DNA from: a virus
Lineage: Duplodnaviria > Caudoviricetes
Direction: 5' to 3' (one strand)
Virus record (IMG/VR): IMGVR_UViG_3300048996_000092
Span: 1 to 57,861 of that record
DNA length: 57,861 nt
Below, one piece after another: positions 15,185 to 57,861 of the stretch; position 1 is the stretch's first letter, and every line of letters starts with the position of its first letter. The position numbers and the translations under genes are program-made. The notes below the pieces were generated by a model. It saw nothing but the letters and a program-made list of their open reading frames with translations, was not told the origin of the DNA and made no database searches.

Positions 15185-15186
15185 GA

Positions 15187-40716: not shown

Positions 40717-41019
40717 GTGAGCAGCCGCACGAAGGAACAGCGGCCTTCACTGGAAGACTTACGTGCCAAGATCGAGGCATCCCGCGAAGCGCCAGACGTG
40801 TCGCCGGCAACAAGAGGGCAGGAATTTGCCGTGCGCGCGCTCACGTCTCAAGTCGTCGCATGGCAAGCCGCATACCTTTGGCACGCTGGTATCACGCAGA
40901 AACTGCTTTCCGGATTCCCCCTGGGTGGGGACGGCGCGCAGAAAGATGAGTACGAGGCAATGGAGTGGGAGCTGCAGGAGGGCGCGTCCCTGATCCGCGA
41001 GAGGTTACCGCAGCCATGA
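40717..41019 (+). CDS. Hypothetical protein, paralog of 50822..51115
   Basis: AWQAAYLWHAGIT..EGASLIRERL. Confidence 0.6.
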   Translation: MSSRTKEQRPSLEDLRAKIEASREAPDVSPATRGQEFAVRALTSQVVAWQAAYLWHAGITQKLLSGFPLGGDGAQKDEYEAMEWELQEGASLIRERLPQP

Positions 41020-43153: not shown

Positions 43154-43158
43154 AAAAA

Positions 43159-43479
43159 ATGAAGACGATGATTATAGCGACAGCGGCGTTAGCGTTATCA
43201 GGCTGCGCGGTGCAGAAGGAAATGGTGCCGACAGGCGGCAGCCGATCCGATGGCACGGTGGAGCTGAGTTACGAGTTTGGAATGTTCGAGACACCAAAGG
43301 TAGACAGCGCACAGGGCGCGGCCACCGCGTCACAGCGTTGTCGTGCGTGGGGCTACACGGACGCGGAGGCGTTCGGCGGCTCCAAGTCTCACTGCCAAGC
43401 TTTCAATGGCTATGGCAACTGCCTCAAGACCCTGGTCACTGTTCAGTACCAGTGCATCGGCGCGGACACGCCGCGGTAA
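43159..43479 (+). CDS. YecR-like lipoprotein
   Basis: Lipobox LSGC; GGSRSDGTV; RCRAWGYTDAEAFG; YQC. Confidence 0.85.
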   Translation: MKTMIIATAALALSGCAVQKEMVPTGGSRSDGTVELSYEFGMFETPKVDSAQGAATASQRCRAWGYTDAEAFGGSKSHCQAFNGYGNCLKTLVTVQYQCIGADTPR

Positions 43480-43544
43480 TGTGGAACAGGGAGCAGCGGC
43501 GATTGCGGGGCCGCTGCTCTCGGCTATCAACACGGAGAACGACA

Positions 43545-43862
43545 ATGGCGCAAATGATCTGCAACAACTGCGGCAATACGGGCTCGCCGAAGACACATAC
43601 CAAGGGGAGCATTTTCATCGAGCTGATTCTGTGGCTGTGCTTCCTGATTCCTGGGCTTATCTATTCAGTGTGGCGCATGTCGTCACGCTCAAAGGTGTGC
43701 CGGTCATGCGGTGCGCCGCACACCCTGGTGCCGCTTGACTCGCCACGTGGCAAGCAGCTGATACAGCAGTTTGCGCCTGTATCGCGGGGTGATCAGGAGA
43801 TGCCGTGGTGTGCGCCATGCGGGTCCTACCATCACGCGAGCGCGCCACACATCAGGGCATGA
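43545..43862 (+). CDS. Zinc-ribbon membrane protein (LITAF-like)
   Basis: CNNCG..KGSIFIELILWLCFLIPGLIYSVWR..CRSCG. Confidence 0.75.
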   Translation: MAQMICNNCGNTGSPKTHTKGSIFIELILWLCFLIPGLIYSVWRMSSRSKVCRSCGAPHTLVPLDSPRGKQLIQQFAPVSRGDQEMPWCAPCGSYHHASAPHIRA

Positions 43863-44522
43863 GCCATGCCGCGAAGCTTGTTCACGCCTGAGCGGACGAC
43901 TCTGCGGGTGTACCCGCGAGACTACGCCCTCCAAATGATTCAGCTGCTTCGCGTGCTGGAACGGATGTACCCAGACTTGCCGGCCGTTCTCTCGGAGCGC
44001 ATTCGAATGGAATGGATTTACACATGAACTTTATCAACCACACAACGACCAGCTCCCTGGACTCAGGCGATGCCTTGGAGTGCATCGACGTCGGTGTTCA
44101 GTACGCCAGCGCCGTGCTGACGTTGTTTGAAAGCGCGCAGCTCGGTGTGAACCAGAAGCGCAACATGGAAACGGCGATGGAGTGGCTTCGGGCTTGGCGT
44201 GACGCTGCGCGCGATCTGTCAAAGGCGACGAACCCATGAACAGGGAAGAAGTCGCACAGAAGATGGCGGCCGAATGGCTTGCCGCTCACCCCGGCGCAAC
44301 CGTCGAGCATGTTGCAGGTTGGATCAGCGCGTGCGGATGCCTCGGCTGCCCGCAGTGGGGCGTTCGGTCGGGGCTTGGACCGTACGACTACTCATGCGAA
44401 TGCGGCGCCAAGTGTCGGTGCCGCTGCACGCTTGAGCCTTACAAGTCACAGAACGCCGCCAAGTGGGAATGGGCGCTTGGTCAGGCAGAGTTGGCGGTAG
44501 TGCGCGCGTCCGCGGTGAAGTC

Positions 44523-45107
44523 ATGAGTACGAACGCTCTTCGCCCCGGACTACCGCCACTGCCAGACCACATGAAGGGCTTGCCGGTTGATGCTCGCGGC
44601 TACCCGATTCCACACTTCGTGGCGTGGGTGGATGGCAAGCCAGACTTCCGCCTACTTGATGACGCCAAGTTTGCGCGCTCACTTTCCGAGAAGACGTGCA
44701 CGGTCTGCGGCATTCCACTTGGCCGCTTCAAGTCATTTGTCGGGGGGCCAATGAATGTGCTGCAGCGGATCTGCGGCGAGCCGCCCATGCATCGAGACTG
44801 CGCGCTGTTCGCAGTCCAGGCATGTCCGTTTCTTCTGTTGCCACTTGCCCGACGTCGATTGGCGAACTTGCCAGATGATCTACAACGCGTCCCAGGTGAG
44901 GAGATGTTCGAGGAAGGCAACCCCGGCGTCACCAGCATATGGACATGCACTGAGTTCCGCGCGGGCAGACACGTCCGGATATTTGAGCTGGGACAAGCCA
45001 CGTCACTTGAGTGGTTCACAGAAGGGAGACCCGCAACCACGGAGGAGATCGCCGCCGCCTGTGAACTCGCAAAGGGTCGATTGAGTGGCCGCGGCGTGTC
45101 GCTATGA
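44523..45107 (+). CDS. Phage hypothetical protein, Cys/His-rich
   Basis: RGYPIPHFV..PDFR..CTVCG..EPPMHRDCA..ACPFL. Confidence 0.7.
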   Translation: MSTNALRPGLPPLPDHMKGLPVDARGYPIPHFVAWVDGKPDFRLLDDAKFARSLSEKTCTVCGIPLGRFKSFVGGPMNVLQRICGEPPMHRDCALFAVQACPFLLLPLARRRLANLPDDLQRVPGEEMFEEGNPGVTSIWTCTEFRAGRHVRIFELGQATSLEWFTEGRPATTEEIAAACELAKGRLSGRGVSL

Positions 45108-45522
45108 CGTTGCACCATCCGGTGGATTTCGAGCAGGTGAAAAAGCAGCGCGACGAATACCACGATTGTCTTGTCAAACAATCGTCACTGCTTCACGACG
45201 TGCAGAACGAGCGTGACGCCGCGATCAAGCAAGTGGTCGAGCTGCAGGACGATAAGGTCAGGCTGCTGCGCGCGAATCTGAAGATGGCGATACAGGTGGA
45301 TCTAGTGCGTGCTCTCGATCACGAAGCAACAGCTGCACGCCGCATCGTCGCGATGCTTGCGTGGCGCAAACGGACGTCGCGTCGAACGGTAATCGGCGCC
45401 CGCAAGCTTGGGCGGCTGGACCCGCGCGCGCTTGGCCATATGGAGGGCGAAGAAAACGAAGCGCACAACGCATACGAGCTTGCGAGCCGCATTCTTCGAG
45501 GGATTGACCTATGACCAGCGCC

Positions 45523-45840
45523 TCACCAGTAGTACACCTGCGGCTTCTTGCAGTCAGGCCACTGGAAACGGTCGGGGTCTGCGCCGCGCTCAATCGCGTG
45601 CAGCATGCGATTGGACCGGATGCGCGCCGGGACAATGTGCCAGTCGTGGGTCCACCAGCCGGGCTCGTGCATGGTCAGCCGGTGGTAGCCGCGCCAGGGT
45701 CGTTCAGTGTGGGTAAACCCGTAAAGCAGCGGGCGCTCAAATGCGCGCCAGGAATGTCCTGTCACCGCGCCGCGGTACAGGATCTGAAGTTTGCGGATCT
45801 TGGCCACCTGCTGTTGGTGGCGGCGAATCGAACGCTTCAT
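45523..45840 (-). CDS. Hypothetical phage protein, antisense to its neighbours
   Basis: Trp-rich ORF (PGWWTH, KPQVYYW) filling the gap between plus-strand genes. Confidence 0.55.
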   Translation of the reverse strand: MKRSIRRHQQQVAKIRKLQILYRGAVTGHSWRAFERPLLYGFTHTERPWRGYHRLTMHEPGWWTHDWHIVPARIRSNRMLHAIERGADPDRFQWPDCKKPQVYYW

Positions 45841-46936
45841 GAAACGTGCTCCAAGTTGTTGGGGTCACGTCATTGGCGTCTCCAGGAGTTTCGAGGCGGA
45901 GGATATTAGCATGACGGATGACATTCAGGACCGCGGCCCATGGACCGTGCAGAAGGGCTCCGACGGCCTACTCGGCGTCGCCAGTGATGACTTCAAGCAC
46001 GACGTGTGGCTGAGAGTCATGGGCGACTTTGCCGACGACGACGCGCGGAAAAGCTACTGCGATTGGCTGGCGGCGAAGTTGAACGCCGAAACCGGCGACA
46101 TGCTGGTCAAGGCTGCGGCGCCGGAGCTGCTGTCGGCGTGCAAGGCGCAACACCAAGCCATCGACATTCTGTTTGCCATGCTGATCAGGGAAACCGCGGA
46201 GCGAACATCCAAGTTGTTCTATCCAAGTAAGAGCGGCGTTCCGTGGGACGCGATGCTTGAGGGCAACGTGGCGATTGCGAAGGCGGAAGGCAATCAGCCG
46301 CCGGTGGTTTCGTCGGATGGTGAGCGCGCCGAATGATCACCATTGATGAGAACCTGTTGGCGATTTGGTGGATAGCGCTGCCGTCGATGGCGAAGCCTGG
46401 GACCAACGAGGCGGACTTGCTGTGCTCATTGGCTCGCCGGTCGCCTGAGGAATGCGAAATCATCTATCGGTTTCGTTACTACGAAACCAAAGGCGCGTGG
46501 GATGGACTGGATCGAAAGAACTGGTACGACGGCGTTGTAAAGCAGCAGCCAGAGGAAATCATTCCGCACCTGCGCGCTATGTTCGAGAAGCTGTCCGCGT
46601 TAGCCGGGGGGAGTAAGGTGTTTGAGATTGTGCGCGGCGATATGACCATTCCTCAGTTCATAGATGAGTTCGCGAAAATGCCGTTCGTGCACATGAAGAG
46701 CGGCGACGATGCGGAGCGGTGGCTGAAGGAGCACGAGCATCAGCAGCGCGCCCAGACGCCATACCGCGCACCGCTGCCTATGCACTACGCGCCCAACGGC
46801 GGGCACAGGATTGCCTGCCCCATCGAAGTCATTGGAACCAACATCACAGCAGAGCCGGGGGACGTCACGTGCAAGCGATGCGCGAAACACGCCGACGTCG
46901 TGAACTACAGAAACAATTTACGAGACAAACCACCAC

Positions 46937-48202
46937 ATGCCTAAGCAAGCCAAAAAATTGAGCGCGTTCCACGTGCACCGCCTGAAGAAGACACACGCCG
47001 TCGGCGGCGTCGCAGGTCTGTACCTCCAGGTCCGTGGTCCAAGCGCACGGAGCTGGATACTCAAGGCCCCTATCCATGGGAAGCGACCGAATCTCGGGCT
47101 CGGGTCGTTCCCGGAGATCAGTCTGGAAAAGGCGCGCATGCGTGCAACCGTAATGCGCGAGCAGATCAGGGAAGGAAAAGACCCACGAGACGTTCAGCGG
47201 CAAGCCGCTGATGAGGCGCGTGCGGCTGCAATGTCTTTGATCAAGTTCAAAGAGGCTGCAGAGGATTGCTGGAAGGCCAAGGCGGCGGAGTTCAAGAACG
47301 CCAAACACAAGTTGCAGTGGATTTCTACTCTGCGCCAATACGCCAACCCGCACATCGGCGACATGTACGTGCAGAGCATCGAACGTGCCCACGTCCTGAA
47401 AGCGCTGCAGCCGATTTGGCACACAAAGACTGAGACGGCCGGACGTCTTCGCGGCAGAATTGAAGCGGTCATCGAGTACGTTCATGCGGTGCTGGGAATC
47501 AAAAACCGCGAGAACGCCGCCAAATGGGAAGGGTTAAAACCGTTGCTGCCGTCGCCACGAAAGCTGACGCGGCGAAAGAGAAAGCATATGGCGGCCCTGC
47601 AATGGAAGCGCATGCCTGAGTTCATACCGCTGTTGATCAAACAGGATGGCATGGCGGCACGGTGTGAGGAGTTCGCCATCTTGACCGTTGCGCGCAACAC
47701 CGAAGCGCGCGGCGCCAGCTGGGACGAGATTGATATGGAAGAGGAGGTCTGGAGGGTGTCGGCGCCGCGCATGAAGGAGTCTCTGCCTCACCGGGTTCCG
47801 TTGAGCCCAGCGGCTATGGATCTTCTGCGTGCGCTGCCGCGCTTCGAGGGAACGTCACTACTGTTCCCAGGGCTCGCCGGTAAGCAGCTGTCGGAGAATA
47901 CGTTGGGCAAGGTGGTCAACCGCGTGACGGCGCAAATGCCTGGATCGCCAGAGGCGACGCCGCACGGGTTCAGGTCTGCATTCAAGGACTGGGCGCGTAG
48001 TCAGCCTGGGCACGAGGACGAAGTGTCTGAACTGGCACTTGCCCACGTCAATTCAGACGAGACGCGCGCGGCATACGCGCGAGACGAGCTGATGGAAAAG
48101 CGACGGGTACTGATGAACGACTGGGCGCGCTTTTGCTACGCACCGGTTACTGGCAATGTCGTGCCGTTCCGCAAGGAAGACCGGGCGGTGGCGGCGCTAT
48201 GA
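46937..48202 (+). CDS. int: P4-like tyrosine integrase with arm-DNA-binding domain
   Basis: GLYLQV..RSW..LGLGSFPEISLEKAR; catalytic R (TVARNTE), HGFR, ALAH, Y (RAAY). Confidence 0.95.
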   Translation: MPKQAKKLSAFHVHRLKKTHAVGGVAGLYLQVRGPSARSWILKAPIHGKRPNLGLGSFPEISLEKARMRATVMREQIREGKDPRDVQRQAADEARAAAMSLIKFKEAAEDCWKAKAAEFKNAKHKLQWISTLRQYANPHIGDMYVQSIERAHVLKALQPIWHTKTETAGRLRGRIEAVIEYVHAVLGIKNRENAAKWEGLKPLLPSPRKLTRRKRKHMAALQWKRMPEFIPLLIKQDGMAARCEEFAILTVARNTEARGASWDEIDMEEEVWRVSAPRMKESLPHRVPLSPAAMDLLRALPRFEGTSLLFPGLAGKQLSENTLGKVVNRVTAQMPGSPEATPHGFRSAFKDWARSQPGHEDEVSELALAHVNSDETRAAYARDELMEKRRVLMNDWARFCYAPVTGNVVPFRKEDRAVAAL

Positions 48203-48915
48203 GTAAGACGGGTGGCGCTAGCGCGCAGCACGGTTTGACGAATTCGGATTTCGTTGTCCTGCAGAAGCAGCGGAATGGTGTTGCAATGGACATTGGCGCC
48301 TTTCTAAAACTGCCCACCCAGGCATGCAGGCTGGAAACCGCCCTGTCACTGTTGAAGCGCGCTCGATCCACCATTCTGCAGGCTTGTGCCGCGCTTGACG
48401 AGGCTCACGTGTCTGCCCATGACATCCGGGCCAAGGCGCTTGCGGAGGTAATGCCAGCGCTGCCATCGCGCCAGTTTTCATTTCGCTGTACAGGGTGCAC
48501 AGCCGGCAGGCACACGACGCAAAAGATGGTCAGTGAGTGTGTTGCGCGAAAGGAAAGGCGCGACGCAGACCGCCGCCTCAAGATTGCCGCCGCGGCTAAG
48601 GCGGAAGTCAATGCCCCCCAATGCAAGAAGTGCTGGGACACAAAGCAGTTGACGCTTGCGGGCGGCGCCAAGATCCGCTGCCAGTTCTGCAAACCGAAGG
48701 TGGACCACCCATGATCGACAGAGAGCAGTTACACGACTTCGTGGCCGCGCACGGGTTCGGTGCGCCAACGGCGGATGGTTACATTGTCGGTCAGCAGCTG
48801 ATCGAGCATGGTGACGACTATGCAACCGCCGCGGCTGAGATCGTCGCTCGCGGCCTGACCGAAGACCCGGAATAGTGACGGCGCCGGAGCCGCGATGACC
48901 AGTGGGAGGCATCTA

Positions 48916-49446
48916 ATGAGAAGCACGAAATGCAAGCCGAGCCCATGCCCACAATGCCGCGCTAATCTTGATGTTGCCACCAGCGCTGTGGGAACCAAGG
49001 CATACCCCGGCGCAGTCAGTGTCTGTCTGTATTGCGGCCACATGCTGGAACTCGGCGAAGGGCTGGTGATCCGGTCGCTTGCGCCTGAGAAATTTCTGAA
49101 GCTTGAGCACGAGCAGCAACTGTACCTTGGCGTGGTGCGCGAACAGGTCATGAAAGACATCGCGGAAAAGAAAGCCGCCGCGGCGGCGCCGCGTGTCGTT
49201 CACTTACAGCGCGAGCGGTACGACGTGCGGATCGACCGGCAGACGCACTGGGGCAATCCGTTCGTGATAGGCAAGGACGGCAACCGAGAGCAGGTAATTG
49301 CCAAGTACCGCGCGTGGATCATGCAGCCTGACAACGCGCACATGATCGAAATGGCAAAGAAGGAATTGCGCGGCAAGGTTCTTGGCTGCTGGTGCGCGCC
49401 GAAACCGTGTCATGGTGATGTGTTGCTGGAGATTGCCAATGGTTAA
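48916..49446 (+). CDS. Zinc finger plus DUF4326-domain protein
   Basis: CPQC..CLYC; WGNPF..LRGKVLGCWCAPKPCHGDVL. Confidence 0.85.
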   Translation: MRSTKCKPSPCPQCRANLDVATSAVGTKAYPGAVSVCLYCGHMLELGEGLVIRSLAPEKFLKLEHEQQLYLGVVREQVMKDIAEKKAAAAAPRVVHLQRERYDVRIDRQTHWGNPFVIGKDGNREQVIAKYRAWIMQPDNAHMIEMAKKELRGKVLGCWCAPKPCHGDVLLEIANG

Positions 49447-49448
49447 GC

Positions 49449-49538
49449 GGAGGGGTGGCAGAGCGGTCGATTGCACCGGTCTCGAAAACCGGAGCGCTCG
49501 AAAGGGCGCCGCGAGTTCGAATCTCGCCCCCTCCGCCA
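49449..49538 (+). tRNA. tRNA-Ser(CGA)
   Basis: GGAGGGG/CCCCTCC acceptor stem, G discriminator, CCA; CCGGT-CT CGA AA-ACCGG anticodon arm; long variable arm; TTCGAAT T loop. Confidence 0.96.
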
Positions 49539-50821
49539 TTTTCAGGAGGAGCATGTGAGCGGCGGAAATCTTGACTACCTGTACGAGCGCATCACGGAGC
49601 TGTCGGAGCTGCTGCATCGCCGCCTCGGCGACACCGAGCGAACCTGGGAGGCTGGCGAGCGCGGACTGGTCCGTCTCTTTGCCCGTTCACTGGATGAGAC
49701 CGCGGAGGTTGCGCGTCAACTTGAATGGTACTGGTCTGGGGACACCGGTCCAGCAGATGCGCTCGCAGCGGTTCGCAAGGCTGTGGCGCACGTTAAGCGT
49801 GACGCCTGCGCCAAGTGCGGTGGCGAGCAAGGCGGCGTCCCTGGCAACGAGAACATCATCGAAGGCGATCCGATATGTGACTACTGCCATAGCTTGAGCA
49901 TGACCCCTGGGGGCGCCCCATGAAGTTCAGAGAGCACCGCGGCGGTCTGGAGGATTCAATGCGGACGGTGGTGGAAGTTGCGGACCGCACCGCCCTGGTC
50001 GCTCTGATGCAGAGCAGATTAGCCGCGTATAGCTACGCATTCGAGCCGCACCAATTGAGAGTTCAGCCGTACATGCGCGATGAGCGCATAGGGTGGGACA
50101 CGCACATAGTCACAATTGACGGGTACGGCGTCGCAGGGTTCACTGACGGGCCGGTTGAGGAACCGCCCCCCACGCCGCCGTCTCTGGAACGCGAAGAATG
50201 GACGCCGCAGCAAGCGCTTGAGTTCTACGCCGCCGGTCGGCACTTTGACGTCGTGAACGGTAGAACGCGAATCATCGACACCGGCGCAATTGCCAGTGAC
50301 GCGCTGAAACAGCTTTCGGCCGAGTATGCCCAACTGAAGGGGCTTGATCAGTCGCCGGAAGTCGTGCCAGGAACGGCAGCCGTCCTCGAGCTTTCTGGCG
50401 CGGGTCAAGCGCACGCCGAGCAGATGCGAACCGCCTTGCTGCGTCTTCAGAAATTGCAAGTGCACGGATCGAAGTCGGACAGGATGATTCTCGCCGCCCT
50501 CACGCCGCCCAAATCCGGCGAGCCCAACTGGTGCTCGCGGTGTGAGACCGCGCACAAGCAAGGGTGCGATGTTCATTGTCACCTGGAGAGCGACGGGGAT
50601 TGCAGCTGCTGACCGCGCCTGGAGGCGTTTCCAATGGCAGACATTTCAAAGTGCACCGGCGTCGACACAACCACGAAGGGAATCTGCCCCAAGCGTGAGA
50701 CGTGCTATCGGTTCACCGCGGTCAGTGCCGGCAACAGTCAGTCATGGCTTTCGCACGCGCCATTCGACAGGTACGGCCAATGCCTCTTGTACAAGCCAAC
50801 ATCACAAAAGAGAGCGGCCCG

Positions 50822-51115
50822 ATGAAGCCGGCATCCAGTACGAGCACCGTGCGCACCACACTGCAGGAGCTGCGCGAAATCATTGAGAAGTACCGCGCAA
50901 TAGAAGAATCAGAGCCCGGCGGGCTGCGATCAGCAAACGTTCGCGCGCGCATCCGCGGGTACGAATCAGACGCCTGGGAGGCTGCATATAAATGGCACCT
51001 CGGCATCACAGAGCAGCTGAGAATTGCTGCGGCTCAGCAGGACCCGCTCGGATGGGCCGAATGCGAACGAGAGCGCATTGAGGGCAACACCATGATTCGT
51101 GATCGTCTTGGATGA
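50822..51115 (+). CDS. Hypothetical protein, paralog of 40717..41019
   Basis: AWEAAYKWHLGIT..EGNTMIRDRL. Confidence 0.6.
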   Translation: MKPASSTSTVRTTLQELREIIEKYRAIEESEPGGLRSANVRARIRGYESDAWEAAYKWHLGITEQLRIAAAQQDPLGWAECERERIEGNTMIRDRLG

Positions 51116-51734
51116 CGCAATGAAGAAACCGCCGCCACGCCCGAAGCGCGAGAAGAAACCCGCCGCGCCCGGCGTCGTGATAATCAACATTCCAATGCCG
51201 ATCAACCTGACCATTGAGGCGATCGAAGTGCAGACGGTGCGCATATTGGGCCTTCTGGCGCAACCGCTACCCCTGAGTGACCAAGCGGAGCTGTACACGC
51301 GCATGGCCACGCGCTGCAGGGAACTGTCATACCTAGCGCGTCAGGGGGATGGATGAAACTCGTTGATACGCGAACCATCACGCTTCCCGCTGGTGCGCTC
51401 GTGGGCATGGTGATTGCGCGCGAGCTGGCATCCGATTTCACTGAGGCACTACAGGCGCTTGGTCGCGGTTGGATGATAATCCCGTCGATGTTTCCGCGCA
51501 TGGCTTACGTCGTTGCGGTCGCGACTACAAATGACCGAATGGATAAAGGGGCGCCGATGGTCTATGGCTGCACCAGGGAGCCGGAGCTGCGCGATATCGT
51601 GGAGCTGGCTTGCGAACAGCTGGAAGAGGGCGCCAGAGTGTTCTGGTTTCTGATCGTGCGCGACACCACGCAGCGCGCGCAGATATTGGATTGGATCAAA
51701 CCGTATTCAGAGCCAGAGCCGTTGCATTGAAAAG

Positions 51735-52128
51735 GGAACTGCGCCGCCGGTTCGCAGACCAGACGACGCAGCTCGCAGCAATTTCCGACGACCCAACGGC
51801 ACCCACCAACACACGGGGGCGTGTTCTGTAAGTTGAGCCGGTTGGCCACCACGGACAACGGGCCGCAGACCGCTGCAGCAAGGACCCCCTGGAGGCGGGG
51901 CCAGCTCTCACCAGATAGACGGGGGCACGGCCAAGGGTCACCCCCTGACCGTTGGCCTCTGGCGACCAGGAGGGGTTGGCCTGACGTCGAGTGGGGGTCT
52001 TTGCATGTGGTGGTGGAGATGTCGTGCGGCCCCATTTTTGGGGTTGCGATCGGCCGAAGGGCCCGCCCGGTCACGTATGCAGTCATGCAGCTGCGCGCCG
52101 ATTCTCTAGCGCACGACTCTCCACCACG
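51735..52128 (+). ncRNA. Candidate large structured ncRNA
   Basis: About 400 nt intergenic with nested long helices containing G-U pairs on the plus strand. Confidence 0.55.
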
Positions 52129-52171
52129 TTTCACTTTCACGCCACAACAAACAGCGGAGTAACTAAGGACA

Positions 52172-52702
52172 ATGCGTACTATCACAGTGATTGTGCTGAC
52201 CATGATTTTCGCGGCGCACGCGAACGCAGAGGGAGCGTTTCGAATTGGCATCGGCGGCGGACAGGCAACCATCGAGGCCGATGATCTGGACCTGAAAGGC
52301 AGCGCAACTGCCTGGGAAGTATTCGGCGGCTATGAGGCCAACGAGAACTGGGCCGTGGAGATCGGCTACATCGACGGCGGCAGCGCAGACGACAGTATCG
52401 GCAACGTCACAGTCGAGGCCGACACGACCACCTTTGTCGCCTCAGTGATCGGGTCCCTGTGGGTCGGCGATAACTTCAGCGTCTACGCGCGCGCGGGGCT
52501 GATGCACTGGGAGTCTGAAGAGGCGCTGAAGGTGAGCGGCGTAACCGTCGCCACCGATGACTTGGACGGTGACGATCCATTCTTCGGCGCCGGTGGCGCT
52601 CTGCTGGTGGATGGCGCATTGCTCAGGCTGGAGTATCGGTTGGCGAATCTTGACGACACCGACCTGTCACTCATTTCACTGGCGCTAGCGTGGAGGTTCT
52701 GA
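52172..52702 (+). CDS. Outer-membrane beta-barrel (OmpA-TM/Ail-Lom-like)
   Basis: Signal peptide (AHANA), VFGGY..WAVEIGYID, YARAG, C-terminal WRF. Confidence 0.88.
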   Translation: MRTITVIVLTMIFAAHANAEGAFRIGIGGGQATIEADDLDLKGSATAWEVFGGYEANENWAVEIGYIDGGSADDSIGNVTVEADTTTFVASVIGSLWVGDNFSVYARAGLMHWESEEALKVSGVTVATDDLDGDDPFFGAGGALLVDGALLRLEYRLANLDDTDLSLISLALAWRF

Positions 52703-52704
52703 GG

Positions 52705-52902
52705 ATGAAAAAGCTAGCGTTCGTTCTGCTGTTGACCGGCTGCGCCTCTACCGGAGGTGGCAGATATGCGCCGCCGCCCCAGTGTGACTCCACCGACGTG
52801 GTAGTTAGCGCAGCTCTTCCACAGCCAACGGACTTGCAGGACTTGGTTCGCCGACGCCAGGACGCGGAGCGCCGCGCGCGGTGTAAGGCTCAAGAAAGTT
52901 GA
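52705..52902 (+). CDS. Small lipoprotein
   Basis: MKKLAFVLLLTGC lipobox. Confidence 0.7.
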   Translation: MKKLAFVLLLTGCASTGGGRYAPPPQCDSTDVVVSAALPQPTDLQDLVRRRQDAERRARCKAQES

Positions 52903-52944
52903 GGGGTTGAATCACCATTCCCGGAGGACAACCCTTTCAACTGG

Positions 52945-52979
52945 TGGGCGTGTGGTGAAAGCTGCACGCCCATTTTTTT
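52945..52979 (+). terminator. Intrinsic terminator of the rightward arm
   Basis: TGGGCGTGTGG-loop-CTGCACGCCCA followed by T7. Confidence 0.85.
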
Positions 52980-53070
52980 GCCGAGGATAGGAGAGGGGAG
53001 GGCCGTGCGTGCCTGCCGTGCCCTCCATCCCTGGTGTTACCCCGCGAAGCGCCGCGGTGACGATGACGAT

Positions 53071-53162
53071 TAATAACCCGGTGTCTTAGCCACCTAAACG
53101 ACTTCCCCATAAAGTTTGGTGGAGGGGAAGACGGGATTCGAACCCGTGTTTCCGAGTGATCA
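53071..53162 (-). ncRNA. Circularly permuted tRNA-like structure (3' half precedes 5' half, no anticodon loop)
   Basis: Minus strand reads ACTCGG-AAAC-ACGGG TTCGAAT CCCGT-CTTCCCC-T-CCA, 11-nt linker, GGGGAAG-TC-GTTT AGGTGGCTA AGAC-A-CCGGGT. Confidence 0.8.
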
Positions 53163-53249
53163 TATGTGCTTTGCTTCGCGCCTTACGCTGACGATTGTTA
53201 GGTGATACGCAGACGAGGACTATCACTCTGACAATGACGACAACGCTAC

Positions 53250-54023
53250 CTAACTCTGTTTCAGCGGCTCCAGCAGTAGCGGCACGAGAATCGCCGCGAC
53301 TGAGCCTTTCACAACCTCTGTGTCATTCGCGCGCGTTCGCGCCTGTTTCACTTCAACCAGCAGCTCGTCGATCAGCTTAAGCGCTTCCGCTTTCTGTGAC
53401 GACGTTGCCGCGCCGCTGCGCTTAACGGTGGTGAATTTGCCGACCACCGCATCACGCTGAATGGCTTGAACCTGTGCAGGATGCTTCTCGGTCGCGGGCG
53501 ACATCACGACCGGGACAACCTGCTTTTCAGTCTTGGTCGTCTCTTCCGCGTACTTCGTGACATAGATGTGCGCGCCGACAGCTGCCGCCAGTTCCCAATG
53601 CTTGGTTGCGTCGAGCGTGGGGATCTCCGCGTAGAGTGCGCGCAGCTTGGTTATCCGCGCCTCAAGGCCCATCAGTTCGTCCACCGGCAGTCCGGCCAGA
53701 AGTTCCTTGCCGCGCCACATAACAGTGCCCGTTGCCACGCGGTTGGTCGCATTCTTCTGGAACTGCAAATCCTCGGCGCGGCCGAATATCTGAAGCGCGT
53801 ATTCCAGGGTGTCGAATACCGTGGTGGTAACCGGCTTCTCCTCGCGCGCCATGTCTTCAATATTTTGGTTTGCTGGACTGTCTTCGATCATTGACAGGCT
53901 CTTGCTGTGGCCGTCGAAGAAGTGGGAGACGTTCTTGAATTTCTTCAGCGTGTCCTCGTACAGCTGGTTCCATGCGCCGGTCGGCGTTTTTTCCGCGGCA
54001 AGCAACTCATGCAGCTTGGCCAT
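53250..54023 (-). CDS. Conserved helical protein (recalled as DUF7873-like; unverified)
   Basis: MAKLHELLAAEK..KNATN..IPTLD..ATEKHPAQV..SGA..ARTRAN; AAGGAG RBS; overlaps the upstream gene by 17 nt. Confidence 0.75.
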   Translation of the reverse strand: MAKLHELLAAEKTPTGAWNQLYEDTLKKFKNVSHFFDGHSKSLSMIEDSPANQNIEDMAREEKPVTTTVFDTLEYALQIFGRAEDLQFQKNATNRVATGTVMWRGKELLAGLPVDELMGLEARITKLRALYAEIPTLDATKHWELAAAVGAHIYVTKYAEETTKTEKQVVPVVMSPATEKHPAQVQAIQRDAVVGKFTTVKRSGAATSSQKAEALKLIDELLVEVKQARTRANDTEVVKGSVAAILVPLLLEPLKQS

Positions 54024-55458
54024 GAACTTCTCCTTTCGGTGCGTGTGGTTGATCAGGTTGTAGAGCCAGCGCGACCGCATTAGGACCGTCGCGCCATGCG
54101 CGCCACAGGTCACGAAGCAGTCGCTTCTCGACGTACCGTTGCGCGCGGCGATGCCAAAGCATCTTGGAGCCGTCAGGAACTTTCTGCTGTTCGAACACCT
54201 TGCGCGCGAGATACAGGTCGCGATACGCGCTCTGCTGCTTGAGAAGTGAGTCGCCTATTACAAACATGATAGATCGTCGCGCGGGCGAGTAACCCATGAT
54301 GTCGCCCTTCGCCTTCGACTTGCACGCGGCCTTGCCATCGACGACGTGCAAACCCATGCGCTTCCAAATCTTGGCCGGGCTGGAATAGTTACCCAGGTCG
54401 CCGCATTCGCCGACTATCTGCGCAAGGCCGAGATCGCCGAATCCATTCACTGCCTCTACCCATGGCCACACCGGCAACTGCTTCGCCAATTTCCGGCATT
54501 TGCGCTCGGCTTCCTTACGTTGCACGGCTAGGCCCGCGCGCACTTCAACTAGGGGCTGCACGTAGAGAGCGAGCTTGGGGTCAACACCACGCCGCTGGAC
54601 GTCACGTAAGTCGAGGTCTCCCCCAAGCTCCGCAGAAGAAGCGATGTCGGCAATAAGGACGTGGTTGTCACTATCAACGGGGCCTTCATCGCTTGAACGG
54701 ACGGGCGCGGCGGCAGATCCTATCTGGGAATCCGCGTCGTTCGGGCCGCACGCGCCCTGTGAAACCGCGATGTCGGCACGCTCGCCTTGGCGGTCGACAT
54801 GGACTTGGCCTTCATCGCTAGAAAGGTCGGGCGCAACGACAGGGCTTTCGCGGGAATCAGCGGATTTTTGGTCGTCAGCGCCCTTCAATTTGAGTGCGCC
54901 TACATAGCGGCGCTCGATTGACTTGATGACGAGCGTCATTGACTTTTCCGGTCGGTGGAAGTCCTGACGGCGCCGGTGCGCCTCTCGAATCAAGTGGCAT
55001 AGGTCGGAGAGGGAAGGCATTCCAGTTTCGGGCGACAGACCGACACAGCCCTTCCCCTCCGATGGAAGATCAGCGCAAGCGCGCAACGGTGTCGCGGGCT
55101 GCGGTTCCAGAATGGCACGCTCGGCTGATGGAAAGTTGGACGAGTCAGGCACCACGTTGCTGGGCGTCACGTCATTCGAGGCCTGATCGTCCGATGAAAC
55201 GTCAGCACCAGCGCGCATGGCGGTCGCGGACTGCAGTTCCAATATGGCGCGCTGTGCTGATGGAAGGTCGGGCGACGAATCAGGCAGGACCCTGTTGGGC
55301 GTCACCGAGGGTGTGGCCTGATCGTCCGTAGAGACAGAAGGGCGCGGCAGTCGCGTTCGGGATAGCACCGTCTCATGGGCCTTGCCCTTCTTTGATTGGC
55401 GCCGAGCCTTGACATTGCCGTTCTGGGCGTCAAGCACATGCGGGTCTCGACTCAGCAT
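54007..55458 (-). CDS. Nop/IS110-C-terminal-like RNA-binding protein (TasA-like, no recognisable nuclease) with in-frame guide arrays
   Basis: Coiled coil plus VNGFGDLGLAQIVGECGDLGNYSSPAKIWKRMGL..YRDLY..HRRAQRYVEKRLLRDLW; GAGGAG RBS; ATG overlaps the upstream stop. Confidence 0.8.
   Translation of the reverse strand: MLSRDPHVLDAQNGNVKARRQSKKGKAHETVLSRTRLPRPSVSTDDQATPSVTPNRVLPDSSPDLPSAQRAILELQSATAMRAGADVSSDDQASNDVTPSNVVPDSSNFPSAERAILEPQPATPLRACADLPSEGKGCVGLSPETGMPSLSDLCHLIREAHRRRQDFHRPEKSMTLVIKSIERRYVGALKLKGADDQKSADSRESPVVAPDLSSDEGQVHVDRQGERADIAVSQGACGPNDADSQIGSAAAPVRSSDEGPVDSDNHVLIADIASSAELGGDLDLRDVQRRGVDPKLALYVQPLVEVRAGLAVQRKEAERKCRKLAKQLPVWPWVEAVNGFGDLGLAQIVGECGDLGNYSSPAKIWKRMGLHVVDGKAACKSKAKGDIMGYSPARRSIMFVIGDSLLKQQSAYRDLYLARKVFEQQKVPDGSKMLWHRRAQRYVEKRLLRDLWRAWRDGPNAVALALQPDQPHAPKGEVHGQAA
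54569..54883 (-). repeat. TIGR-like stem-loop guide array B (5 units), inside the CDS
   Basis: 32-nt cores start (minus strand) at 54871, 54808, 54745, 54682 and 54616, each closed by a stem. Confidence 0.85.
55004..55455 (-). repeat. TIGR-like stem-loop guide array A (7 units), 5' part of the CDS
   Basis: 32-nt cores start at 55444, 55379, 55316, 55247, 55181, 55115 and 55049, each closed by a stem. Confidence 0.85.
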
Positions 55459-55988
55459 GACTTTGTCTCCTCGTACATACGCGCGATGACGTCCTCCCTC
55501 ACGGAATGCCTGACGCACCCGCGTGCTGGCATTTCATTGGCGAGGGCGAGCAGCCAGCGCTTCTTGTGGCCGTTGCCAAGTTCCTGCAGTTCGTGAATGC
55601 GCGCTTGCGCAACGAGGTCATCTCTGTTTGCTGCGCCTAGGCTCATACCGCTCGCGAGAGGCCAGTCATACCAGTTACGCTCTATCGCCGTGATCAGTGC
55701 GTCGCCGGCATTGCCGCGTGCGCGAGTCGTGTGCTGGATAGATTGCCGCGTGTGGCGCAATGCCAGACGGATGACGTCGTATGCTGCCTGCTCTTTGAAG
55801 CGATCCAGAGCGGCGCGATACACGGCTGGCTCCGCATCCATAAGTGCCATGAACTTTTCCGCCGCTGCCCTGATGTCGCTCCCTGATTCATCAAGGAACT
55901 TCCTAGCCAGGGCGGCGAGGGTGATGTTGGCATAGGATCGTCGACGCCAACGTTCCCCCTCACCAGCCGATTCGTGTGGCGCTGCCAT
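55452..55988 (-). CDS. Hypothetical helical protein coupled to the Tas-like gene
   Basis: AAGGA RBS; its stop overlaps the Tas-like ATG (ATGCTGA). Confidence 0.7.
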   Translation of the reverse strand: MAAPHESAGEGERWRRRSYANITLAALARKFLDESGSDIRAAAEKFMALMDAEPAVYRAALDRFKEQAAYDVIRLALRHTRQSIQHTTRARGNAGDALITAIERNWYDWPLASGMSLGAANRDDLVAQARIHELQELGNGHKKRWLLALANEMPARGCVRHSVREDVIARMYEETKSC

Positions 55989-55999
55989 AAAAATTCCTT

Positions 56000-56257
56000 T
56001 CAGTTGACTGGAAGCTCTATCACGTGCCAGACAAAGCGGCCGTCATCGCACGTGCCAACGTACTGGCCGCGGTCTGGGATCAGATGGCCGGTGCCGATGA
56101 TTCTGAAGCGGCGATCGCACTGCGCACCATCAATATCAACCTCTACCCAGATGCATAAATCCGCCTGCATCGCGACGCGGCGGACGATGGCGCCCATGCT
56201 CATCGGGACGTCATTGTCGACACCGTGCCGCAGCGGATACTTAAAGATGGTGCGCAC
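56000..56257 (-). CDS. Small phage hypothetical protein
   Basis: RTIFKYPL..CIWVEVD..IIGTGH..YVGT..FVWHV. Confidence 0.65.
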   Translation of the reverse strand: MRTIFKYPLRHGVDNDVPMSMGAIVRRVAMQADLCIWVEVDIDGAQCDRRFRIIGTGHLIPDRGQYVGTCDDGRFVWHVIELPVN

Positions 56258-56258
56258 G

Positions 56259-56489
56259 TCAGGTCTCAGCTGCAATCCGCGCCGGCACCTTGTGGTCGGC
56301 GATGCGGCACAACCACGCCAGTTGATTGACGGTGATGTATGTGCCCAGCCCGTGCCGATTCGCCTTCAACATCATTTCGGCGGCGAATTCCTGGTCACCC
56401 TCGCTGCGCGCCTGGGACTGCGCGTCGCCGCACAACTGACGGAATTCGTAATCGGTTGCGTACCAGTCTGCTGCGCTCGTCATGACCAA
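56259..56489 (-). CDS. Hypothetical protein
   Basis: Fills the gap in the minus-strand operon. Confidence 0.55.
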   Translation of the reverse strand: MVMTSAADWYATDYEFRQLCGDAQSQARSEGDQEFAAEMMLKANRHGLGTYITVNQLAWLCRIADHKVPARIAAET

Positions 56490-57296
56490 TCACCGGTTTT
56501 GGGTTGTGGGGATTTGAATGAACGGCGTGGCGCCGCCCATCATGTACTGCGGCATTTTTCCGTCCCACCTTTGCACGGCTTCCCATTCGATCAGCTTGGC
56601 GTTCTGTTCCAGCGCGTTGGCGCGGATGCGGATGGACTCTGCGTCCGCCTTCGCGTTGAGGATCGTCGCCTTGGCGTTTCCCGAAGCTGTCTCAACCTTC
56701 TGATTGGCCTGCTCGCGGATTTGCACCGTGTGGTTCTGTTCCTCGATCGCCTTCTGCTGCGCGATCACCTTGGCCTCTACGGCGTGCTCGAACTCGGGCG
56801 TGTAGTCGATGTTTGTCAGCTGGAAGCCGGTGACGATGACGTTGCGCGCGGCGAGCTTCGAGGTTACTTCCGCCTCGATGGCGCGTGACGCCTTGTCGCG
56901 CTGCGCGATGATGTCAACCGCCTCGTGTTGGCCGAACTCACGCTTGATGCTCTCGTGCAGCACCTGCCCGACCAGCTTTGCCGCCCACTCCACTCCGACC
57001 GTTTGAAAGACCATGTGCGCCCGCGTCGGATCAAGGCGGTACGTCAGCGTGAACAGCACCTTGGCCTGCTGCACATCGCGCGTGTACGCGGTGGATTCGC
57101 CATCCCACTTCTGCACGCGCGTATCCATCTGGATGACGTCAGACGTAAAGGGGTTGTACCAATACAGGCCCTCCGGCAGTGATTCAGACATCACCTTGCC
57201 GAAGCGTGTTTCAACGCCGCGGTGGCCGGTGTCGACTGTCTGCCAGCCGCAGCCGCTTAGAGTCATGATCGCCGCGAACAACAGAATGCTTTTCAT
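56490..57296 (-). CDS. SPFH/prohibitin (band 7) family protein with lipobox-like N-terminus
   Basis: VDTGHRGVETRFGKV..EGLYW, AYTRDVQ, FEHAVEAK, RWDGKMPQ; LSGC. Confidence 0.9.
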   Translation of the reverse strand: MKSILLFAAIMTLSGCGWQTVDTGHRGVETRFGKVMSESLPEGLYWYNPFTSDVIQMDTRVQKWDGESTAYTRDVQQAKVLFTLTYRLDPTRAHMVFQTVGVEWAAKLVGQVLHESIKREFGQHEAVDIIAQRDKASRAIEAEVTSKLAARNVIVTGFQLTNIDYTPEFEHAVEAKVIAQQKAIEEQNHTVQIREQANQKVETASGNAKATILNAKADAESIRIRANALEQNAKLIEWEAVQRWDGKMPQYMMGGATPFIQIPTTQNR

Positions 57297-57511
57297 TTCT
57301 TCAACTCCTGGGTTTCCCTGGTGACGTGCCACAAAACTGCGCGACCTGATGCGGAGAAAAGCGCCAGCGGCCAAATCGCGCACAGAAGTAGGCGCCGCGG
57401 GAACTTCGAGAACGTTCTGGCGAAAGCGAGGTCCGACAGCGCGACCAACAGAAAGCCCATCGCGCCAAGCGACCAGACCATGAGGCTGAAGACAAACAAT
57501 CGGATCATCAC
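57293..57511 (-). CDS. Small membrane protein
   Basis: Two hydrophobic segments with a WP motif; coupled to the SPFH gene. Confidence 0.55.
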   Translation of the reverse strand: MMIRLFVFSLMVWSLGAMGFLLVALSDLAFARTFSKFPRRLLLCAIWPLALFSASGRAVLWHVTRETQELKK

Positions 57512-57720
57512 GACGCCACCTCCATTTCCTGCAGGTGCTGCGCGTCGCACTGCTCAACCTGATCTTTAACCCAGCGCGTCGTTTGACTGGTGAGGCGCAC
57601 CGGTCGGGGGACGCGCCCCGTTTGCGTCCACCGCCAAATAGTTGCCGGGTGAACGCCATAGCGCGCGGCCATCTGCCGAACGCTTAGATAAACGATGTGC
57701 GGCGCCTGTTTTGTCATCAC
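57508..57720 (-). CDS. AlpA-family excisionase/regulator
   Basis: YLSVRQMAARYGVHPATIWRW..PRPVRL..TRW. Confidence 0.85.
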   Translation of the reverse strand: MMTKQAPHIVYLSVRQMAARYGVHPATIWRWTQTGRVPRPVRLTSQTTRWVKDQVEQCDAQHLQEMEVAS

Positions 57721-57861
57721 GCGCTCTCGCGCGTGTCGATGACGTATTGAGCGTACGCGCTGCGCAGCTCCTTCACGTCGACCATGCGGCGGCGCCGCCC
57801 CTTGGGCACAGTCTGGATGCGCCCAGTCTCGATGAACGTGCGATAGAACTGCGTGCGCGAC
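57717..57861 (-). CDS. Excisionase-like HTH protein, 5'-truncated by window
   Basis: Reads SRTQFYRTFIETGRIQTVPKGRRRRMVDVKEL; TGA overlaps the next GTG. Confidence 0.55.
   Translation of the reverse strand, partial: SRTQFYRTFIETGRIQTVPKGRRRRMVDVKELRSAYAQYVIDTRESA

Follow-up and report, generated by a model that had tools for sequence, protein, structure and literature searches.

Stem-loop TIGR arrays and their partner protein TasA were published in 2025 (Faure et al., PMC12045711), and in-frame intragenic TIGR arrays were reported in September 2026 (Xu et al., bioRxiv 10.64898/2026.09.09.750476). As RNA-guided DNA binders that are both compact and PAM-independent, TIGR-Tas systems currently attract interest for genome tools; TasA has been reported in the literature as an RNA-guided repressor, with EMSA. 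According to the preprint of Xu et al. (bioRxiv 10.64898/2026.09.09.750476), small-RNA-seq placed tigRNAs of Bifidobacterium longum TasA within coding sequence, the intragenic segment of BlTasA is located in the wedge loop, a CUU-type linker motif is a processing mark, and many clades have extended disordered N-termini. The system from a Peromyscus leucopus gut contig is described as consisting of tandem hairpins with box C and box D (PMC12045711, Fig. 7), with two spacers of 8–12 nt and with palindromic stems of variable sequence that replace edge repeats. Its TasA is a nuclease-less dimer, the structure of which is given in a separate preprint (bioRxiv 10.64898/2026.08.11.744272).

We find a locus of this kind on a phage-like contig from soil that looks like a temperate phage. 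The window (the whole 57,861-nt stretch of DNA that we analyzed) encodes a Nop-type Tas protein without RuvC or HNH, together with an array on the same strand, within tas, of units that have dual spacers of ~9 nt, boxes C and D, and palindromic variable flanks. The frame is intact through the array, and the units fall in disordered regions of the protein. We identify this as TIGR-TasA with an intragenic array (probability about 95%), and a stem-loop-type TIGR-TasA system is, in our judgment, likely to be the best explanation of the locus overall. The preliminary description of this DNA had recognized the TIGR format, which agrees with the stem-loop array described in PMC12045711, and it knew of no intragenic in-frame version. 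That layout is already reported for TIGR-Tas (bioRxiv 10.64898/2026.09.09.750476), and the present locus is a further member.

The arrays of Xu et al., as described, likewise have box C/D-flanked dual-spacer stem-loop units in frame inside tas, placed in disordered regions between Nop-domain elements of a protein with no nuclease domain, and the extended disordered N-terminus is also shared. Unlike in their example, all 12 of the units here are intragenic, as an N-terminal block of seven and a block of five at the tip of the coiled coil. The P. leucopus array is described as three sub-arrays with a ~450-nt intergenic region between (PMC12045711), whereas here the array is inside the ORF; the likeness to PlTasA is judged from its published description. 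The dual-repeat systems TasR and TasH (PDB 9MTY, 9VZX, 9W04, 21KL; 9MTY is the TasR RNP of PMC12045711) share the Nop-type coiled coil and C-terminal domain, as well as the logic of 9+9-nt dual spacers with CCA and UG anchors. They differ in having RuvC or HNH, and in having conserved edge repeats where this locus has stems, so its units are not uniform 36-nt RNAs.

Gene setting and fold of the TasA protein

The tasA gene (54007–55458) is a 483-aa ORF that runs from an ATG at 55458 to a stop at 54007–54009; all features described here are on the minus strand and are given in plus-strand coordinates. A longer alternative reading of 503 aa would start from a GTG at 55518. Reading from the sequence, a Shine-Dalgarno-like GAGGAG (55467–55472) stands 8 nt ahead of the ATG. 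The upstream co-oriented ORF (55452–55988, 178 aa) has its stop at 55452–55454, 1 nt past the tasA ATG, and this overlap suggests translational coupling. The 178-aa ORF belongs to no known family (no match in Pfam, PHROG, or PADLOC). In 16 of 80 viral loci a relative of it directly precedes tas in the same orientation, and it may be an accessory gene. Downstream, a co-oriented DUF7873 gene (53250–54023; Pfam PF25283, E 1.1e-61) begins with an ATG within the 3′ end of tasA, giving an overlap of 17 nt; relatives of this gene were found in none of the 80 viral loci, searched up to 3 kb on each side of tas, so nothing marks it as a conserved partner.

The protein is a Tas Nop-domain protein without a nuclease domain, and thus TasA. 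By profile and fold, its Tas/Nop-type domain comprises the C-terminal 170 aa plus an upstream helix. The helix (residues 150–200; 54859–55011) is the first arm of the coiled coil; it is modeled with pLDDT of 80–98, has a conserved consensus among homologues (the 149-sequence alignment A1), and is covered by the alignment to TasH. Residues 294–465 (54064–54579) form the second arm and the C-terminal RNA-binding domain of Nop-type fold, and this segment aligns to residues 133–295 of TasR 9mty. In the AlphaFold model, pLDDT is >90 over residues 150–195 and 290–460 (mostly >90 across 294–465), and it is <50 over residues 1–131 and 203–282, both of which are array-coded. The whole region ahead of the coiled coil is array-coded, and the model shows it as disordered; the array-coded parts are predicted to be a disordered N-terminal tail (units 1–7) and a disordered coiled-coil tip (units 8–12).

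When the profile of the 149-member family was compared with solved structures, it matched TasR (9mty_A, E 1.3e-24) and TasH (21kl_A, E 9.8e-9). A Foldseek search with the AlphaFold model returned only TasR or TasH chains at ranks 1–8 (E 6.5e-7 to 3.9e-4), followed at ranks 9–12 by the IS110-family recombinases ISCro4 and IS621 (E 0.012–0.063). These results bear out the earlier claim of an IS110/Nop-like C-terminus. They also raise the question of whether the gene encodes a degenerate IS110-family transposase, with hairpins that are bridge-RNA-like and serve recombination. The sole Pfam listing at E≤1 is a weak match to Transposase_20 (15 bits, compared to a cut-off of 21.3), and the closest PHROG family (phrog_4285, E 4.7e-20) is labeled transposase. 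The RNA-binding domain is indeed related in fold to that of the bridge-RNA recombinases (IS621, 8WT6/8WT9; ISCro4, 9T56). However, TasR and TasH outscore the IS110 proteins, and the DEDD (RuvC-like) catalytic domain is missing: neither DEDD_Tnp_IS110 nor any RuvC or HNH nuclease domain appears in Pfam at E≤1, and the N-terminus, where that domain would be expected, is disordered in the model. In place of one bridge RNA with target and donor loops there are 12 tandem single-hairpin units. We therefore consider the transposase reading very improbable.

For Nop5 and Prp31, a distant resemblance in fold and in box C/D-type RNA anchors is argued in PMC12045711. Their Foldseek matches to TasA are insignificant (E of at least 0.56) and the Pfam Nop model does not match the protein, so that a box C/D snoRNP of the Nop5 type was rejected. 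No k-turn/L7Ae or fibrillarin partners of snoRNPs are readily evident here.

Format of the hairpin units

The array consists of 12 hairpins (54571–55457), each with a 32-nt core in which box C and UG enclose two 9-nt spacers with a 9-nt loop (NG-N4-CC-N) between them. A perfect stem of 5–10 bp flanks the core in all 12 units, either abutting it or separated from it by an imperfect inner segment of 4–5 nt. All units are on the tas strand and within the tasA ORF, and no units were found upstream or downstream of tasA in the contig. Inside each sub-array the units are spaced at 62–69 nt. Below, the 5′ end of each core is its higher coordinate (from 55444 in unit 1 to 54616 in unit 12).

Sub-array 1 (55004–55457) encodes residues ~1–152, the disordered N-terminal tail. 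Unit 1 (55400–55457) has an outer stem of 9 bp and its core at 55413–55444, and unit 2 (55336–55391) has an outer stem of 8 bp and its core at 55348–55379. In unit 3 (55278–55323) a 7-bp stem abuts the core (55285–55316); unit 4 (55209–55254) also has a 7-bp stem (core 55216–55247). The 5-bp stem of unit 5 (55145–55186) abuts the core (55150–55181) and has an outer 6-bp extension to 55192/55138. Units 6 (55076–55123; core 55084–55115) and 7 (55010–55057; core 55018–55049) both have 8-bp stems, that of unit 7 being extendable to 55062/55004.

Sub-array 2 (54571–54883) encodes residues ~193–296, the disordered insertion at the coiled-coil tip, which stands between two conserved protein segments. 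Unit 8 (54834–54877; core 54840–54871) has a 6-bp stem with an outer extension to 54883/54829, and unit 9 (54767–54818; core 54777–54808) an outer stem of 6 bp. Unit 10 (54703–54757; core 54714–54745) has a 7-bp outer stem plus four inner pairs, with a 1-nt bulge. The outer stems of units 11 (54639–54694; core 54651–54682) and 12 (54571–54630; core 54585–54616) are 8 and 10 bp, respectively.

The preliminary description had listed 12 minus-strand hairpins with 32-nt cores, and all of the listed cores are present (coordinate printout, compared by eye). Its core formula, CCN with a TG-N4-CCN loop, holds for most units. Box C is CCN in 11 of 12 units, with GC instead of CC in unit 7, and the loop starts with TG in nine units, CG in two, and GG in one; these deviations were already visible in that list. 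Aligned without gaps, the 12 units have six invariant columns: box C contributes its second C, the loop its G and CC, and the 3′ end its TG. Tandem Repeats Finder reported nothing at the array, because the units share structure and not sequence.

An array of 12 units is far beyond chance. Under a strict rule that demands an initial CC, G and CC in the loop, a terminal TG, and a stem of at least 5 bp, the window has 12 matches on the minus strand, 11 of them in the array, and none on the plus strand; unit 7 is recovered once the first base of the rule is relaxed. Composition-preserving shuffles (n = 200) gave a mean of 1.31 matches per window on both strands and a maximum of 5. The stems covary: paired cells amount to 73.6% over the 12 units, compared to 49.7 ± 3.1% in shuffles (0 of 500 shuffles attain 73.6%) and 35.8%–50.8% when the partner is slid. 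Changes on both sides are seen in 12 of 12 stem pairs. For the 911-nt stretch, the minimum free energy corresponds to a z-score of −3.35; none of 20 shuffles folded equally well.

Relatives offer a broader view of the units. The TasA family comprises 3039 representative clusters at E≤0.001, with members in phage contigs and in apparent prophage regions of cultured Bosea, Methylobacterium, Mesorhizobium, and Aminobacter. In 80 viral loci, strict units number 298 on the tas strand versus five on the opposite strand. The nucleotide consensus of the units is unchanged by codon phase or by being inside or outside the ORF, and the spacers carry ~0 bits in it, indicating that the conserved thing is the RNA. 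It is worth asking whether the hairpins could be a by-product of a low-complexity protein region, or a generic palindromic repeat, rather than guides. The region does encode repeated peptide motifs, and there are two-unit duplications of 132–135 nt in the array. Yet one nucleotide motif is kept in two codon phases with different peptides, and outside ORFs as well; moreover, the stems covary, the units are strongly strand-specific, and the protein encoded with them matches the solved structures of TasR and TasH. Given this, a by-product or palindromic-repeat origin seems extremely unlikely.

Reading frame through the array and translation start

The claim that all 12 units lie within one 483-aa ORF stands, as this is the sole frame of six without stops across the array (0, versus 8, 17, 11, 4, and 7 in the other five). 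Units 8–12 are flanked in that one frame by the conserved helix 150–200 and the C-terminal domain. Among the viral loci, 194 of the 298 units are inside the tas open frame, and at least one unit is inside it in 53 of the 56 unit-bearing loci. We compared frames in 71 distinct related viral loci, 49 of which have upstream units. Between the first upstream unit and the C-terminal domain, 28 of the 49 have no stop in the tas frame, compared to 1 and 0 in the +1 and +2 frames. Upstream units themselves are stop-free in 192 of 207 cases in the tas frame versus 145 and 115 in the control frames; downstream units have no frame preference (22, 21, and 26 of 40). As judged from these sequences, arrays leave the tas frame open much more often than they do the control frames.

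Core starts fall at codon position 1 in just six of 205 in-ORF units (194 from the viral loci and 11 from the window). This position is almost never used because TGA, with which the loop commonly starts, would there be read as a stop. Together with the family-wide frame statistics, this codon-phase rule provides sequence-level support, from independent data, for the frame-preservation statement of the preprint (bioRxiv 10.64898/2026.09.09.750476). The constraint acts on the RNA motif, and the peptide need only stay open.

Full-length translation from the ATG at 55458 is likely. The array-coded parts have a weak codon-position signature (GC1/2/3 of 0.66/0.55/0.66 for units 1–7, compared to 0.63/0.39/0.73 for the DUF7873 gene), so it is the open frame and the start signals that speak for translation of the first 150 residues. 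Translation could instead begin at an internal ATG that the end of unit 7 provides just ahead of the coiled-coil helix (residue 144 in the 483-aa numbering). Only units 8–12 would then be truly intragenic, and units 1–7 would form a leader array on the 5′ side, with the shared open frame a coincidence. The lack of a coding-type GC2/GC3 contrast in units 1–7 fits such a start, as do two relatives (P0014 and P0022) that start right at the helix and two metagenome loci (L081 and L082; 58%–63% identity to the C-terminal domain) in which five of six units are upstream of the open frame. As for the coincidence itself, 150 open codons would occur by chance with a probability of ~0.1, based on the least stop-rich of the other frames (4 stops in 295 codons). 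Against this, the ATG at 55458 has a strong GAGGAG and overlaps the upstream stop, whereas the internal ATG lacks a comparable Shine-Dalgarno sequence. Two close relatives (P0001 and P0002, 68%–70% identity), at 503 and 372 aa, share the called N-terminus despite their different lengths, and the openness from first unit to domain in relatives (28 of 49, versus 1 and 0 in controls) speaks against coincidence. On balance an internal start is quite unlikely, and from the Shine-Dalgarno sequence and ATG we infer that units 1–7 are translated. The relatives that start at the helix and those with upstream units do indicate, at the level of sequence, that in-frame placement is common but not obligatory. 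Every part of the preliminary description that could be tested in silico is supported.

Guide production and array growth

If the locus works as other TIGR-Tas systems are published to do, a single operon transcript (178-aa ORF, tasA, and DUF7873 gene) would be both tasA mRNA and pre-tigRNA. Hairpin units would be excised in the linkers, probably by a host RNase, and a TasA dimer would bind each unit via two box C/D pairs, with the two 9-nt spacers pairing with opposite strands of an 18-bp site. Without a nuclease, the complex would only occupy DNA, and so block transcription or another DNA transaction; the DNA affected could belong to the host, to a competing element, or to the phage. A search of the contig alone yielded no guide targets at ≤1 mismatch. 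CTT occurs in the 3′ flank (within 26 nt) after seven of 12 units, a weak echo of the reported CUU mark.

That the tasA mRNA is the guide precursor is plausible by analogy, and we lean toward it. The guides might also be transcribed separately, from promoters within the gene, in which case coding and guide functions would share DNA and not RNA. The preprint states that its own data cannot tell whether a longer transcript is processed or the guides are transcribed independently from within the gene (bioRxiv 10.64898/2026.09.09.750476). At this locus, 12 units spaced at 62–69 nt leave little room for separate promoters, and a consensus scan of 53000–57861 found no sigma-70-like promoters compared to 1.3 expected from shuffles (weak evidence, as the scan covers the sigma-70 type only). 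Separate transcription thus appears unlikely. If the mRNA is indeed the precursor, the layout probably ties the protein-to-guide ratio together, because a diced transcript cannot be translated.

The tasA locus is a clean, rather extreme natural case of effector mRNA and guide array in one gene. With carriers among cultured Bosea, Methylobacterium, Mesorhizobium, and Aminobacter, questions raised in the field (bioRxiv 10.64898/2026.09.09.750476), such as mRNA versus internal-promoter guides, the processing RNase, natural targets, and spacer gain, could become approachable in native, culturable hosts.

The layout may do more than save space and may serve regulation. The tasA mRNA may be the sole source of guides, each transcript being either translated or diced, and nascent TasA that binds the hairpins of its own message may set the ratio of protein to guide. 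The units also hint at how arrays grow. Units 3 and 5 have 35 of 38 scaffold positions in common and only six of 18 spacer positions; for units 9 and 11 the values are 31 of 38 and, again, six of 18. Near-identical scaffolds with unrelated spacers hint that units are duplicated and that only their 9-mers are then replaced, in a directed or strongly selected way, with growth possibly constrained further by the need to keep the frame open. Taken jointly, the regulatory device and this mode of growth are a tentative proposal that we consider rather doubtful as a whole.

Twelve guide units within one open frame

The hairpin scan of the minus strand placed 12 stem-loops between 55457 and 54571, each holding a 32-nt core with CC at its 5' end (GC in unit 7) and TG at its 3' end. 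All twelve core strings listed in the preliminary description of this locus were recovered from their coordinates. When the units were aligned without gaps (12 nt of flank, the 32-nt core, and another 12 nt of flank), six columns were invariant: one in box C (its second C), three in the central 9-mer (G and CC), and two in the terminal TG. The two 9-nt stretches between these invariant columns were variable. A strict unit rule (CC, the inner G and CC, TG, and a flanking stem of at least 5), applied to the whole 57,861-nt window, returned 12 matches on the minus strand (11 in the array and a weak one at 19283) and zero on the plus strand. Relaxing the first base of the rule brought in unit 7. 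The control, in which 200 windows were shuffled, gave a mean of 1.31 matches over both strands and a maximum of five.

The flanks of the units pair far more often than expected by chance. Pairing was found in 73.6% of cells, versus 49.7 ± 3.1% when partners were shuffled (none of 500 shuffles was as high), and sliding the partners by one to three columns gave 35.8%–50.8%. Changes on both sides were seen in all 12 stem pairs, and folding of the 911-nt array stretch gave z = −3.35. Tandem Repeats Finder reported no array, which is uninformative for such divergent units because they have architecture, not sequence, in common.

The array-bearing ORF ends at 54007 and starts either at GTG 55518 (a 503-aa reading) or at ATG 55458 (483 aa). 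Across the array, the tasA frame contains no stops and the other five frames contain 8, 17, 11, 4, and 7, so the claim that the array lies within a single 483-aa ORF holds. GAGGAG is found 8 nt ahead of ATG 55458, and the 178-aa ORF upstream ends at a stop that overlaps this ATG, an arrangement typical of coupled starts. The core begins at codon position 2 in units 2–7 and at codon position 3 in units 1 and 8–12. The units are spaced at 62–69 nt in ten of 11 intervals, eight of which are multiples of three; the remaining interval is a 178-nt gap that codes for a helix. With the hairpin coordinates mapped on the protein, units 1–7 (sub-array 1) code for residues ∼1–152, the N-terminal tail, and units 8–12 (sub-array 2) code for residues ∼193–296, which lie between the arms of a coiled coil, that is, at its tip. 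The locus stands out because its twelve units (seven in the tail plus five at the tip) are in frame without exception.

Some units resemble one another closely outside the spacers. Units 3 and 5 (55138–55328) are identical at 35 of 38 scaffold positions (stems, boxes, and loop) and at six of 18 spacer positions. The corresponding values are 31 of 38 and six of 18 for units 9 and 11 (54639–54820), and 31 of 38 and 12 of 18 for units 4 and 6. Units 3–4 and 5–6 form a two-unit tandem duplication of 132–135 nt. Comparison of the unit sequences suggests growth of the array by duplication, with fast or directed turnover confined to the 9-mers, and arrays of this kind may diversify through replacement of 9-mers that preserves the scaffold.

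Identity and architecture of the protein

The protein encoded by tasA (54007–55458, minus strand) was searched against family databases. Pfam yielded a sub-threshold match to Transposase_20 alone (E = 0.033), and PHROGs yielded phrog_4285, labeled transposase (E = 4.7e-20; residues 308–477 of the 503-aa reading). PADLOC had no match for TasA or its four neighbors, and no RuvC, HNH, or DEDD domain was found in TasA. An exhaustive phmmer search retrieved 3039 representative proteins at E ≤ 0.001, including 469 at E ≤ 1e-30. These relatives range from 141 to 574 aa and have the C-terminal ∼165 residues in common, many with a second matched stretch. A 149-sequence alignment, inspected along with the sequences, contains two conserved blocks, a helix (consensus I..IRE.HR.R.D..RAE..LT.QIKAI.RR) and the C-terminal domain, with highly variable segments before and between them. 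The profile built from this alignment matched the TasR chain 9mty_A (E = 1.3e-24), which belongs to the TIGR-TasR RNP of Faure et al. (9MTY), and TasH (21kl_A and seven further entries; E = 9.8e-9), the latter in an alignment that extends from the helix to the C terminus.

The AlphaFold2 model that we used was run on the 149-sequence alignment (mean pLDDT was 43.8 for the single-sequence run). Its pLDDT exceeds 90 at residues ∼150–195 and 290–460 and falls below 50 at 1–131 and 203–282. The confidently folded parts of the model are thus the helix and the C-terminal domain, and the array-coded parts are predicted to be disordered. Extended disordered N termini are described for many Tas clades in a preprint (Xu et al., bioRxiv 10.64898/2026.09.09.750476). 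Searched against the PDB with Foldseek, the model matched TasR (E = 6.5e-7) and TasH chains first and then the IS110-family recombinases ISCro4 and IS621; Prp31 and Nop5 appeared at nonsignificant scores only. Together, the profile and Foldseek results support the IS110/Nop-like C terminus originally proposed from the sequence. Of the structural resemblances then put up for checking, those to Tas proteins (TasR and TasH) and to IS110 were recovered, and that to Nop5 did not reach significance. Assignment of the protein to IS110 or to Nop5 was considered and rejected, as it falls outside both by their definitions of membership. We conclude that the protein is TasA. By every property that can be tested in sequence, the tasA locus qualifies as a stem-loop TIGR-TasA system whose array is intragenic, and the central claim of the preliminary description, a TIGR-format guide array inside its own Tas gene, therefore stands.

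Reading frame and array placement among relatives

We compared 80 related viral loci (71 after removal of duplicates). The 80 loci contain 298 strict-format units on the tas strand versus five on the opposite strand. Most of the tas-strand units (194) are inside the stop-to-stop tas open frame, 168 of them past the first ATG; 55 are upstream and 49 are at or beyond the end. At least one unit is inside the tas open frame in 53 of the 56 unit-bearing viral loci.

Frame openness was evaluated using the 71 deduplicated loci. Of the 49 loci with upstream units, 28 have no stop in the tas frame from the first such unit through to the C-terminal domain, versus one of 49 in the +1 frame and none of 49 in the +2 frame. 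Considered individually, 192 of the 207 upstream units lack stops in the tas frame, compared with 145 and 115 in the other frames, and units downstream of the domain have no frame preference (22, 21, and 26 of 40 stop-free). Arrays outside the ORF can be full of stops. For example, the out-of-ORF array of the viral locus L061, one of several such cases, has stops in all frames (16, 4, and 7). Thus, units alone do not hold a frame open. We dropped a test of frame constraint based on spacing modulo 3 in favor of the frame-stop comparison, because adjacent-unit spacings that are multiples of three did not discriminate arrays inside ORFs (62 of 93) from those outside (21 of 36).

Codon phase is also uneven. 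Of the 205 in-ORF units, 11 of them from the window, 125 have their core start at codon position 3, 74 at position 2, and six at position 1. The commonest loop start, TGA (99 of the units counted), is a stop if the core is at codon position 1, and the loops of the five distinct units at that position start with TGT. Part of this bias is circular, since any in-frame TGA closes the open frame by definition.

The units have the same nucleotide consensus whether they sit at codon position 2, at position 3, or outside ORFs. This holds even at positions that the strict rule does not specify: the core is preceded by GG and followed by CC, an A follows both the opening CC and the loop CC, and a T precedes the loop G. 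The spacer columns carry ∼0 bits, and the encoded peptides differ with codon phase. From these comparisons, it is the RNA motif that is conserved, and the peptide need only stay open. In five viral loci (L047, L054, L061, L026, and L071), runs of units are found downstream of the tas 3' end or straddling it, and array position is therefore flexible even in this single protein family.

Relatives also occur outside the viral collection. An alignment query of genome contigs retrieved 17 bacterial-assembly loci, and a single-protein TasA query of the same contigs retrieved no relative. The 17 loci include those of cultured Bosea vaviloviae, Methylobacterium iners, M. dankookense, Aminobacter anthyllidis, and Mesorhizobium mediterraneum, and others in MAGs of several phyla; most have strict-format units in or near the gene. 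The cultured Bosea, Methylobacterium, Mesorhizobium, and Aminobacter strains would be culturable native hosts for functional work. Metagenome contigs added two loci (L081 and L082) at 58%–63% identity. In the GenBank phage collection, megablast of 40000–57861 gave no match, and tblastn of TasA gave two weak matches only, to a Rhizobium phage and a Microcystis phage annotated as hypothetical. Of the 19 bacterial-assembly and metagenome loci, 13 carry one or more strict units within the open frame of tas. Five of the six units of L081 and L082 are upstream of the open frame, and some TasA relatives begin right at the helix; both observations argue against in-frame placement being obligatory.

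Expression, precedent, and gene neighborhood

A 2025 paper (PMC12045711) described TasA together with stem-loop TIGR arrays, which are transcribed and cut to single hairpin units that copurify with TasA. In published TIGR-Tas systems, a Tas dimer holds an 18-bp site whose two strands are each paired with one of the spacers. According to the preprint by Xu et al., TasA and catalytically dead TasR mediate guide-dependent, reversible repression of transcription, with target DNA bound in EMSA, and the ends of processed tigRNAs fall at a CUU motif at the base of the stem. In the window, seven of the 12 units are followed by CTT within 26 nt, in most cases as part of a recurring linker motif in which CTT is often followed by CCATC (e.g., after units 3, 5, 6, and 8, ∼14–18 nt past the core). 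This linker may be the counterpart of the reported CUU processing mark, albeit a weak match.

By analogy with the published systems, the operon transcript would be both mRNA and pre-tigRNA. If so, dicing and translation of one transcript would be in competition, and the intragenic layout may be an autoregulatory device. Whether the mRNA is the guide precursor is also left open by the preprint authors. No sigma-70-like promoter was found in 53000–57861, which is weak evidence against internal promoters. To look for self-targets, we scanned the contig for spacer A and reverse-complemented spacer B lying side by side in either order, allowing gaps of 0–3 and at most three mismatches. This gave 12 matches, four of them inside the array itself, versus ∼4 expected by chance; there was none at zero or one mismatch within the contig, and no target was identified.

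The intragenic in-frame layout, initially thought to be new, is already stated in the preprint of Xu et al. There, small-RNA-seq of the B. longum TasA system placed tigRNAs embedded in the coding sequence. In full-text literature searches, the layout was found stated in this preprint only, and no mention of it was found in bioRxiv 10.64898/2026.08.11.744272.

The window, which spans the entire assembled contig, carries genes for a tape-measure protein, tail proteins, a tail fibre, a baseplate-like protein, and a tyrosine-type integrase (8814–20421 and 46937–48202). Given the tail genes and integrase, it is temperate-phage-like. Among sequencing runs, it is listed for a single soil-metagenome DNA run, which may be its source. 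The minus-strand gene run comprises Band_7, DUF7352, the 178-aa ORF, tasA, and DUF7873. A relative of DUF7873 adjoins tas in none of the 80 viral loci. The 178-aa ORF (55452–55988, minus strand), read as translationally coupled to tasA, matched no family in Pfam, PHROGs, or PADLOC and had no usable match in the protein atlas. In 16 of the 80 viral loci, a weak relative (21%–36% identity) is encoded immediately ahead of tas in the same orientation, and the product of the 178-aa ORF is a possible accessory factor of the TasA clade. The neighbors of the tas operon include genes for an OmpA-like outer-membrane beta-barrel protein, a DUF7352 protein, and an SPFH/Band_7 protein (52172–52702, plus strand; 56000–57659, minus strand), which are possibly phage moron or accessory genes.
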